Source: Bdellovibrionales bacterium
GTDB taxonomy: Bacteria > Bdellovibrionota > Bdellovibrionia > Bdellovibrionales > UBA1609
Assembly: GCA_965219095.1 (NCBI GenBank)
Contig: CBDCMT010000001.1
Span: 1,920,001 to 1,984,000, forward strand
DNA: 64,000 nucleotides
Direction of reading: 5' to 3'
Made by a program: the position numbers and the translations under genes. Below, piece after piece: positions 10,165 to 61,355 of this stretch (within the stretch, counting starts at the first letter, position 1; every line of letters begins with the position of its first letter). The notes below the pieces were generated by a model. The model was not told where the DNA came from. It saw only the letters and a program-made list of their open reading frames with translations, and searched no databases.

Positions 10165-11662
10165 GTAACTGCTCACCTACATTGTTCAGTTATCCCTAAC
10201 TTTAGACCTGTTTTTAAGATAAAAGTCTTGCTCTTACAGATTTTCTTTTAAATACTTTTTTCAAATGACAATAAATAAGACCTCCATCAGAAATGAGATT
10301 GAAAATATAAGAAGTGACTTTGATAAGTTTGCAAAGAAAGGTTCTATGCCTACTGAGATTTCTGTGATTGTTGAATCTCTCTTTAAGGTTGTGAACATTC
10401 TGATTGTTGTGCTTTTAGAAAAACAGGTTCGAAAAAATTCCAGCAACAGCGGTCTTCCTCCTTCGCAAGATTTTAGTCGTCAAGGGAATCGTAATAAGAA
10501 AGCTAGTGGGAGTCAAAAAAAGGGCTCTAGACTTGATAACAGTAAAGATACAAACAGTGAGGAGACTGTCTCTCCCTCAGAGTGTTCTCAGTGTGGGATG
10601 TGTTTAAAGACAGCAGAGGTAAAAAGCCTTGAGAAGCGTAAAAAGATTGATATTTTTTATGAAATTCAGACCCATACTGTAACTTCTGAAGTTAAGGATT
10701 GTCCCTCATGTGGAGCTAGAAATAAAGGTCAATTCCCTAAAGGTATGAGTGGTCCTCTTCAGTATGGTGTAGGCATTAGAGCTTCCATCATCAATTTCAT
10801 TATAGTTCAGATGCTGTCTTTTAGAGCGTGTTGGGGAACATTACATGGGGCTTATAGGTCGAATGATTTCTCCTGCAGTTATGTTGAGATACATTGCTGA
10901 ATTAGGAGAGTTTCTTAAAAGTTGGGAAGAGCAGATGAAAGAAAAGATACTTGAATCAGAGGTCATTCATGTTGATGAGACCTCTATGAGGGTTAAGGGT
11001 AAAAACTACTGGATTCATACTTATAGTTCAGGAGAATTAGTCTTGCAGTTTCTCCACCTTTCAGGTGGAAGGGAAGCCATAAAAGATATTGGTCTCTTGG
11101 ATAGATATGGAGGAGTGCTTGTGCATGATTGTTGGAGTCCTTACTTTTGTTATGATAAGATAACTCATGCTTTGTGTGTGGCTCACCTTTTGAGAGAGCT
11201 TAAATTTATAGAAGAAAGCAATGGATTCAAATGGGCTACAAATCTCAAAAAACTTCTTAAAGAGACTGTGGAGTTAGTTCATAAAAAAGAGTCAAGAGTT
11301 CTGACTCAAAAAGAGTACGAAACTCTTCAGAGAAGGTATAGGAGTATTCTTACAAAAGGCTTAAAAGAGCTTCCAGAATTTCCTAAGAAAAATGGCAAGA
11401 AAGGACGAATAAAGCATACACAAGCTCAGAACCTTTGGCTGCGATTTAAAAAGTATGAAGCAGAAATACTGTGCTTTGCTAAAAGAAAGAACGTAGATCC
11501 TACTAATAACAGAACTGAAAGAGATCTAAGAATGACTAAAGTGAAAAAGAAAGTGTCAGGGTGTTTCAGAACAGAAGAAATGGCGAAATATTTTTGTCGT
11601 ATTACCAGCTATGTTAAAACAATGAGAAATAGAGGGTATTCTTCTTTAGAAGCCATCTCTAT
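10165..11662 (+). mobile_element. IS66-family element (single-ORF type); transposase frameshifted (10265-10900 / 10845-11687), right end lost
   Basis: GTAACTGCTCAC end; NSSNSGLPPSQD, HVDET, HDCW, LCVAHLLREL, TNNRTERDLR motifs. Confidence 0.9.
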
Positions 11663-13906: not shown

Positions 13907-14854
13907 ATGATAAAAACTGTTTTTATCATGGTTGTAGCGTTAGTTTTATCTTTTCAGAAAGGTGCTTTTACTTACGCTGCTCTCAGTCAAGATAGTGTTA
14001 ATCAAGATAGTGTAAGAAAAATTACAGAGTATTTAGGAAAATACAAAAAATATGAATATTGGGATTTTTTGCAGACCGAATTTCTTCTCCCTACTCATTC
14101 ACCACAGCTTGTTATAGGCTCTTCTATTGATTCAAACCATTATTTTGCTAAAAATTCTGTTTTGATCATTTTGGTTAGCGATGAAGGGACTGGTATTTGT
14201 TCTGGATCTGTTCTTACAAAACATTTCATACTCACAGCAGCTCATTGTCTTAAATCTGTTAACGAAGCTTATATTTTTACAAATAATCTTATTTCTACCA
14301 AAGATGTTGTCAAAGAGATCAGAAAAGGAATGGATGGAAAGTTTTTTAAGGTTACAAAAAACTCCTTTGAAGTGAGTCCATGCTACCATCCTAGTAATAA
14401 TTCTGCATGTGATATTGCAATGATTTTTGTTCCTGAAGCTTTAAATAAACATGATGTACAAGTCACTTCTGTAAGGCTTATTGGTTCTGGGTCTGGGCCT
14501 TATGTTTTGACTGGTTATGGGATGCCACCGAAAACAAGCAGGCCATCTAGCGATGAAGATGAGGTATGGGTATTAAGAGGAGTAGAAGTTGATTTGTTCT
14601 ATAATGACCAGGCCATTGTTTATACCCATAGAAGAAGATTTGGGCGGCACGTTGGTGTTGTACAAGGTGACTCAGGGGGCCCTATGTACGAAAAGGCAAG
14701 TGATGGAAGTTATGTGCAAGTAGGAGTCAATGTTGCTAAGTCTACTCATTATAATATTTCAGTAAAAGTCGATAGGCATCTATCTTGGATGCAAGGAATT
14801 ATGAAAAGTCGCACCGCTACTACTCTTAGTGCTGGATTAAATCTTGCAAATTAA
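13907..14854 (+). CDS. Secreted trypsin-like (S1) serine protease
   Basis: Signal peptide; catalytic triad LTAAHC, DIAMI, GDSGGP. Confidence 0.92.
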   Translation: MIKTVFIMVVALVLSFQKGAFTYAALSQDSVNQDSVRKITEYLGKYKKYEYWDFLQTEFLLPTHSPQLVIGSSIDSNHYFAKNSVLIILVSDEGTGICSGSVLTKHFILTAAHCLKSVNEAYIFTNNLISTKDVVKEIRKGMDGKFFKVTKNSFEVSPCYHPSNNSACDIAMIFVPEALNKHDVQVTSVRLIGSGSGPYVLTGYGMPPKTSRPSSDEDEVWVLRGVEVDLFYNDQAIVYTHRRRFGRHVGVVQGDSGGPMYEKASDGSYVQVGVNVAKSTHYNISVKVDRHLSWMQGIMKSRTATTLSAGLNLAN

Positions 14855-59116: not shown

Positions 59117-59809
59117 AAACACATTATAACCCGAGTTTCGACTTTTTTCAGCTCTAAAGGCTAGCTGATATAAACAAACATCTCAGTTCTTTGTAAGATG
59201 TCTTGAAGAAGCAACTTACAAGGAAAAAACAACTTGAGAGTTATAAAAAAACATACAAGGAGGTCTAAGATGTTTAATTCTAATTCTAATTCTAATTCTA
59301 ATTATATCATATCAATTTATGTTCTTGTCGATGATTTTTTAACCCCTCTCATACAGCAGCACCCAGAACTGGTTCCCAAAAATAAAGGAGGTTTTTCTTG
59401 TGCTATGTCTCCCAACGAAATTGTCACTCTTTATCTTACTTTTCCAAAGTTCTGGCTTTAGGAATTTTAAAGCCTTTTATCAGTTTGCAGAAGTCTATCT
59501 TAAACCTTATTTTCCTAAAATGTTGTCTTACTCCCGATTTGTGAACATCAAAAAAGACATGGCTAAAGACATGGCTTTTTTGATGTTTCTTTTCTCGACA
59601 AGCCTTATGAGTAAAACGTAAGTCGGTTTCTTAACAGCCCTTGACATCCTCCTCGTAGGAGTCAAGGGCTGTTAAGAAATCGACTTACGAAAAAAACAAT
59701 GAAGTTTTAAAAACTATCTGTCTGAAAGGCCAGCTTTTTGATTGTAAGTATGAGCATTAAAAAATCTTTATTTTTAGCTCTCTTTTACATGTTAAAATAG
59801 AACTTAAGT

Positions 59810-60887
59810 ATGAGGTTTTTGATTCTTTTTTTTCTTATCTTTCTTCCCATCCTCTTAGAGGCTTGTGATGAAGAAAATCCCTTTTCAAAACTTAATCCCA
59901 TAGCAATTCTTTTTTGCCCTCACCCACCTTGTCATTTTTTTTAAGGCCCCTGTTGATAAAAGCATCAGAAATGCAACTGTAAGAGTAGAAACAACAGTCA
60001 TTTGTTCAGGACTTGTTATAAGACTTAAAAGAGGAGCAAAAAAATGTAAAGACCCTCTTCTTCTTACAGCAGGTCATTGTGTAGCACCTAGTAAAGATTA
60101 TAAAGTTATTACGGTTTATAATCATAACGGTGATTTTGATATTCCAAGAAAGAATATCTTTTCTCTTTAAAAAAAATGTCTTAAACCTCACAACTGTCTT
60201 GTAAGTCCTGGTTATGTTCTGGATGATGAACTTCATTATTCAGGAGTGGATCAAGCCCTGATTCCTATGCCTAAACGATACCGCAAAAAAGGCAATATCC
60301 CTGCTTTTGAGATCGATATAGAAAGGGTAGCAAACAAAGAAGACTTAGATTCCTGCTTTAAAGACCCCTATCTTCAAGCAAGAATTACTTCAGTTTTAAC
60401 AAAATCTCATTTAAAAAAGATGAAAAAAAATGAACTAAAAGCTATAAAAGATTACATACAAAGCCATACTTGCCACAATCTTAGTTGGATGAAAATACGA
60501 AGAAATGAAGGAGTGATCAAAAGGAGCCTAGGCCATAGATGTCCTGGTTTATATGGCATGTCGGGGTCTTTTATGAATTTTGAGTGTCATAACAAGAAAG
60601 CTCTTTTTGTTCATAAGGGACATCTCTTCATAGCTGCTAGTGATGAAGTTTACAACAGAGCAAAGGCAGGTGAGATCATTTACTCTTCTGAATATGAAAG
60701 AAAGGAATCTTTTAAAAACACAGCCATTTATATTGAACCTGAGCTTCTTGAATTTTATTTTAACAACTACTGTGATTCTAATGTGGCTTATCAAAAAGAA
60801 AAGACTCCTCCCGGGAACCCACAGATTCTTTTGAGGAGGCAAAAAATATTGACCTATGAATTTTCAAAGTCTTATACAGACATTTAA
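59810..60887 (+). pseudogene. Trypsin-like serine protease lipoprotein, frameshifted
   Basis: Lipobox LEAC; ICSG, LLTAGHC, DQAL, GMSGS over several frames; 38-bp ISL3 scar near the 3' end. Confidence 0.75.
60803..60840 (+). mobile_element. 38-bp collapsed ISL3 (IRL tip fused to IRR)
   Basis: GACTCCTCCCGGGAACCCACAGATTCTTTTGAGGAGGC; junction in the shared CCGGGAA. Confidence 0.85.
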
Positions 60888-61355
60888 AAAATACCAGTCA
60901 TAAGATTTTAAACGCTTTGGGAAGATGTTAGGAAATAAAATGAGAAAAAGAAGAAAAGTTTCCTCAGTAGAAGTCAAGGGCTGTTAAGAAACCGACTTAC
61001 AGTAAAACCACCGGCATATCATTTATTGATTCCACATCGATTTTTCTTCAAAAATAAAAGAATAGGACGAAATAAGGTGTTCTAAAAGTTAGCTAAAAAG
61101 AGGCAAAAGTAGTATGGACTGGTTCTTCGGATTTAAACTCCATATTGTTATCAATCACCTAGGAGAACTTTTAAGTTTTACCTTAACTCCGGGAAATGTA
61201 GATGATCGAAAGCTAAGTTATGAATTTATAGTAAAGGGCTGATGGGAAAACTCTTTGGGGACAGAGGTTATATTTCATCAGACCTTTTCAAAAAGCTTTT
61301 AAAGAAGGGAGTTAAGCTTATTACAAACGTCAAATTAAATATGAAGAATAAATTG

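Follow-up and report, generated by a model that had tools for sequence, protein, structure and literature searches.

Positions 59618-61000 of the window (the whole stretch of 64,000 nucleotides of Bdellovibrionales DNA that was analysed, C2:1920001-1984000 of the genome) are occupied by a 1383-bp unit which is probably, at a probability of about 0.7, a transposase-less cassette with two right ends of an IS66-family element (designated here IS66A), put together in steps from leftover end stubs and mobilised in trans. The identity of its ends, its duplication, the cognate element, the donor family of its cargo, the two lesions of this cargo and the positions of its junctions can be read directly from the assembly. 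The best reading of the cassette is that of a neutral by-product of insertion sequence (IS) proliferation, not of selected effector delivery, and the unit provides a clean, well-resolved case of IS end debris building mobile cassettes during an IS burst.

Boundaries and contents of the cassette

The terminal 28-bp repeats of the unit are exact reverse complements of each other, and the 8-bp sequence AGTAAAAC is found on both of its sides (59610-59617 and, as an exact match, 61001-61008), confirming the size, the perfect inverted repeats and the exact duplication given in a preliminary description of this DNA. Target duplications of 8 bp are given for ISPpa5a and ISPpa7 in the passages of PMC3281130 that concern them, and the cassette carries an exact duplication of this IS66 type. 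No transposase gene was identified between the ends by six-frame translation and BLAST, which sets the unit apart from autonomous IS66 elements and from tIS66, where the transposase genes lie inside the ends.

The unit opens with a 71-bp palindrome (59618-59688), followed on the forward strand by the last 23 codons and stop of a 504-aa cysteine-rich gene (59689-59760) and by a trypsin-fold protease pseudogene (59810-60887), the fold being taken from an intact sister copy, P0001. A 38-bp ISL3-type mini-element (60803-60840; 21 copies in the genome) links the 3' end of the gene to the right arm, made up of an orphan spacer (60841-60960) and a 40-bp IS66A right-end stub on the forward strand with its tip outward (60961-61000). 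The protease gene is not the sole cargo that it had been taken for, as the partner codons, the mini-element and the 120-bp spacer accompany it. Using a 119-bp query, the spacer gave five matches, all at 100%, and it is confined to five loci with a common right arm. This arm ends exactly at the tip in all five, each time with a different flank, and only that of the window has a duplication partner; no matching partner was found for five related right ends (the full arm being present at four, a deleted variant at one), the nearest case being one partner with 1 mismatch located 1.5 Mb away. A promoter scan returned one site where chance would give 4.2, and the sense strand had none, which is weak evidence for this lineage.

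The host was placed in its lineage from one gene, the named top relatives of its FliA mostly bearing the label Bdellovibrionales. The genome is highly repetitive, with 44% of its 3.1 Mb in repeats of at least 100 nt and elements nested in each other, and no contig bridging the whole unit or either junction occurs among the matches listed from four other runs (one study, short contigs); the empty-site joint visible in contigs of these runs is derived from the many other copies of the target. A misassembly is nevertheless very unlikely, considering that the junctions coincide exactly with the element tips, that the duplicated site is single in 24 other target copies, that the unit bears private and shared variants setting it apart from every sister, and that both lesions of the cargo recur in other runs.

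IS66A and its ends in the genome

The 28-bp repeat has 104 matches in the genome at up to five mismatches and none in 40 related genomes. Pairing of ends on flank identity allowed the identification of the cognate element, IS66A, which is 2610 bp in length (C1:544939-547548), has an 8-bp duplication of its own and encodes the Pfam families TnpB_IS66 (PF05717) and DDE_Tnp_IS66 (PF03050). Over 28 bp, the cassette repeat differs from the right end of IS66A at one position and from its left end at nine; judged by this sequence comparison, both ends of the cassette are therefore IS66A right ends. This agrees with the earlier assignment of the ends to the IS66 family and with the proposal that the helper element lies elsewhere in the genome, and the family of the helper was identified by this search. 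The IS66 at position 10165 of the window, already described as having different ends, was ruled out as helper on its left end, which mismatches at 18 of 28 positions. No intact IS66A tnpC was found in the assembly, where the longest frame is 376 aa and none spans all three motifs. Defective IS66A copies have tnpC lesions in common (a stop in 5 of the 8 copies covering it, a frameshift in 11 of 19), a pattern consistent with their having spread in trans through a helper that has since been lost or is missing from the assembly.

Right, left and MITE-left types together amount to 160 IS66A-family ends in the genome, and 72 of the 98 right ends retain less than 110 bp. Matching 8-bp flanks occur in 22 of the 144 inward-facing end pairs tested (21 exact, one with 1 mismatch), compared with about 0.05 exact matches expected, so chance is excluded as a source of the duplications. 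By size, the 22 units are distributed as follows: 70 bp, one unit; 120-121 bp, six; 181 bp, three; 257-259 bp, four; and 1383-6923 bp, eight. The 14 units of 70-259 bp are without transposase. Seven of the eight larger units (>300 bp) are IS DNA, with at most 12% low-copy sequence, and that of the window is the only one that is low-copy throughout. The preliminary description had suggested that MITE pairs mobilise host genes in trans. Non-autonomous units with their own 8-bp duplications bear out part of this, but general effector capture is not shown, because the listing of repeat pairs with their duplications and cargo leaves the window's unit alone (one of eight larger units) with a non-IS gene.

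Among the small units, the 181-bp composite consists of a right-end stub and a 121-bp MITE, and the exact duplication is a different one at each of its three copies; outer right-right ends are thus able to mobilise composites of the IS66A family. This unit is a direct small analogue of the cassette. The exact 1383-bp unit is present once in the genome and for this reason offers no second insertion with a different duplication; from its own duplication and by analogy with the 181-bp composite, this single copy is likely to have moved as a unit in trans.

The left palindrome

The left end had been described as a 71-bp MITE, and the palindrome is real: it is a head-to-head fusion of two IS66A right ends, with the outer arm at 59618-59645 and an inner arm that ends at 59688, and folds as DNA into a long hairpin (z -12.3). 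Donor DNA begins precisely at the inner tip. The right end, thought to be half of a second copy of this MITE, is instead the 40-bp IS66A stub, which has other inner sequence and the outer 28 bp of which form the right inverted repeat. The internal junction of the palindrome recurs at C2:775775 and C2:2236008, where a duplication belonging to the palindrome was looked for and none was found; the palindrome at C2:2236008 also adjoins a protease gene copy, 56 bp further in.

The main alternative history that can be built from these parts is one in which the palindrome alone inserted and generated the duplication, and a circle of 1312 bp with gene and stub later recombined into the shared 28-bp core. 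The gene would then never have transposed as part of the 1383-bp unit. The inward-facing right arms do form a direct repeat, spaced 1312 bp apart with the gene between them, C1:273679 has a right-right palindrome of 70 bp flanked by a duplication of its own, and the 116 of 160 ends that have no duplication partner suggest frequent one-ended events, which could release circles. This history is considered unlikely, however, as it requires recombination within about 30 bp, two other palindromes with the same junction have no duplication of their own, and the 181-bp composite shows that the one-step route works in the IS66A family.

The target element

The target (5' half 59127-59617, its start being approximate; 3' half 61001-61355; both forward strand) is a degenerate multicopy element which, from the PF13612 domain in its 3' half, we take to belong to the IS982 family. 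A search by site motif identified 26 copies, 24 of which carry the 8-mer once and without insert. Excision of the cassette had been reported to restore the frame by joining MSKT to TGISFIDST; this holds locally, but the frame stops six codons on. No open frame in any of the 26 copies exceeds 128 aa (678 bp tested), and these two observations indicate that the target was probably dead already before the insertion. A 12-bp insertion in the target element (59544-59587), missing from most other target copies, gives rise to a short inverted repeat just to the left of the cassette.

In another target copy, a 121-bp MITE (C2:2023596-2023716) is located at exactly the same base, its far side lacking a duplication. 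With an IS66A right tip at the insertion base of the window, this locus shows that the site was hit twice, a double hit which by itself suggests a preferred target site. The junction was rejected as a duplicate of that in the window, since 7 of 340 nt differ between the two right halves and a different MITE makes up its inner sequence.

The second hit is also what lends some colour to the proposal that the locus is a chimera, in which one preferred site was hit independently in each of two target copies and an adjacent deletion joined the two insertions, with a coincidental duplication. The closest relatives of the left and right target halves also rank somewhat differently. These differences in ranking amount to a few nucleotides among copies that are 92-99% alike, and two rare hits plus a deletion are required, making such a chimera very unlikely.

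The cargo gene and its sister copies

The protease gene of the cassette had been described as an effector-type cargo. It is a pseudogene without a continuous open reading frame: a frameshift in the T-run at 59935-59942 makes the frame close after 44 aa, and an in-frame TAA occurs at 60168-60170. Its effector status is not established. Furthermore, the C-terminus is replaced from 60803 on, the last codons being swapped for the ISL3-type mini-element. The nearest sister copy, C2:900286, which over 923 nt of the 3' part differs at 2 positions, has the same stop, and for this reason the cargo was probably inactive before transposition. The 5' parts are mosaic, so gene conversion is possible.

In three other runs there are contigs identical to the window over 60053-60265, and two contigs of X1 align gaplessly through the T-run. 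The lesions are therefore not sequencing errors; long-read errors were rejected as their origin on the basis of these matches and of the presence of the stop at a second locus. The one X1 contig across 59689 among the matches listed runs on into native upstream sequence, a weak hint that the X1 strain may hold a frameshifted allele without the left palindrome.

Three intact copies of the gene, about 90% identical, are found in native context, each behind a cysteine-rich gene of about 500 aa (L003:6579-8093, reverse strand; C2:1786919-1788466; C1:600601-602187). The partner protein is probably exported; for the 504-aa form, no Pfam match and no usable Atlas match were obtained. Of the partner gene, the cassette took up no more than the last 23 codons, so the upstream region of the operon was left behind. 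Six other copies are bordered by IS sequence (one intact, namely C2:176850, which encodes P0001; one with the stop; four truncated), and every left border of the gene copies is an IS end. At C2:442100-449571, a distant paralog of the protease (32% identical) occurs as a tandem triplicate, with a period of 2.48 kb and 99.9% identity between repeats. Part of the other IS66 delimits each repeat, and the arrangement resembles a recent IS-mediated amplification.

The protease family

Neither a Pfam search with P0001 (no families) nor PDB sequence searches (best E 0.25) identified the cargo, and the fold was recognised by structure and language-model searches. P0001 has an Atlas score of 0.97 to Trypsin_2 clusters. 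The best structural match of its model (pLDDT 74) is YdgD of E. coli (7uxg; Z 14.8, rmsd 3.7, 215 aligned residues, 20% identity), and the best 50 matches are all proteases or protease-like domains. D147 and S251 do not vary among 20 sequences, and the histidine lies within a TAGHC motif in every full-length row. On this modelling, P0001 is a putative serine protease with a chymotrypsin-like fold and His-Asp-Ser motifs, and the earlier description of the cargo as trypsin-like was correct as to the family. Elsewhere in the window (13907-14854), an unrelated intact gene of the trypsin family is present (PF00089, E 5e-11).

The hydrophobic N-terminus suggests that the protease is exported. Its label as a lipoprotein could not be established: Cys19 is present, but with Glu at -2, against the lipobox consensus, and the cysteine is missing from this position in 8 of 9 full-length homologues from other genomes. 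The family is small, cysteine-rich and lineage-restricted, with 15 matches in one search and 31 in a profile search among 1.84 billion representatives; the protein was found in 0 of 40 related genomes, and a JGI metagenome scan confirmed no relative among 15 candidate stretches. Differences between paralogs cluster at residues 58-64, 93-117 and 246-282, near the catalytic motifs, and do so among paralogs of other genomes as well, making a diversification of protease specificity possible on sequence grounds.

Lineage restriction, multiple copies with such clustered differences and an intact IS-bordered sister (C2:176850) are what could be expected of an adaptive gene-capture system dispersing active secreted effector proteases. 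There is little probability of this, however, with two lesions in the window copy, a single intact gene among the six other IS-bordered copies, one non-IS cargo among eight larger duplication-flanked units and overall pairwise dN/dS of about 0.4-0.6, below 1. With a dead cargo that has no counterpart in the other paired units, no new route of effector spread is shown.

Proposed assembly and possible wider spread

A stepwise assembly from end stubs could have taken the following course. First, the ISL3-type mini-element would have joined the 3' end of a protease paralog to the spacer and an outward right-end stub, creating the arm now present at five loci. Upstream of the gene, IS ends would then have inserted at differing positions, in the present case as the right-right palindrome. 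Finally, an IS66A transposase acting in trans would have used the two outermost ends, and insertion in one piece into the dead IS982-type element would have produced the 8-bp duplication. We infer both the order of these steps and the action of the transposase on the outer tips.

A 5'-truncated copy of the protease gene was identified in OZ244717.1 (L028:6000-6639), a sequence titled Candidatus Oxydemutatoraceae (Gammaproteobacteria). This fragment is 84-85% identical in DNA to the copies of the present genome, has about 38% GC in a locus of 45% GC and is bordered by host genes and by weak remnants of an integrase core that score below the Pfam cutoff; no IS66A ends were found at the locus. 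It possibly reflects either a cross-phylum transfer or a chimeric assembly. A broader scenario, speculative and on balance doubtful, is that orphaned right-end stubs act as permanent handles making neighbouring genes into serially mobile cassettes, that they spread a fast-diversifying, lineage-specific family of secreted proteases in a host-associated Bdellovibrionales genome, and that similar IS activity carried the gene fragment into a co-occurring gammaproteobacterium. The protease family and the cross-phylum fragment are more interesting leads than the cassette itself.

Comparison with known systems

MIC231-A1 carries an endopeptidase gene; unlike MIC231, the present cassette has a broken passenger. 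Mobile insertion cassettes are described in the relevant passages of PMC6199540 as having a pair of inverted repeats from a cognate IS and at least one passenger CDS but no transposase, as measuring 0.7-3 kb and as being mobilised in trans by the cognate transposase; the original papers on MIC231 are cited in PMC2266710. The unit of the window resembles MIC231 of the Bacillus cereus group in its IS-derived inverted repeats, lack of transposase and passenger CDS (here a pseudogene), and its 1383 bp fall within this size range (PMC6199540). It differs in that the ends of MIC231 come from IS231 (IS4 family), whereas here two IS66 right ends are used, the left one doubled as a palindrome. In the literature searched, with ISfinder and most subscription papers outside it, neither an IS66-derived mobile insertion cassette nor a right-right IS66 element was found; the present case indicates that two IS66 right ends suffice for transposition.

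Likeness also exists to TIME-COMP and other MITE-flanked composites, in which non-autonomous miniature ends flank and move host DNA; as presented in the portions of PMC4133298 and PMC10969869 concerned, these have two whole miniature elements (Tn3-derived in TIME-COMP). The cassette does not consist of two complete MITE copies and has one whole palindrome and one 40-bp stub, its mobility being deduced and not trapped. The protein of the intact sister shares the trypsin/chymotrypsin fold and the His, Asp and Ser motifs with YdgD (7uxg) but, at 20% identity and with no Pfam match, belongs to a small cysteine-rich family of its own. Like tIS66 (e.g. ISPa75-fosZ), the cassette combines IS66 ends with a host-derived passenger gene, although tnpA, tnpB and tnpC are kept inside tIS66, as far as it is treated in PMC12888890, and none is present here. 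The sister at C2:176850 adjoins an IS66A left end and resembles a remnant of the tIS66 layout described there (PMC12888890).
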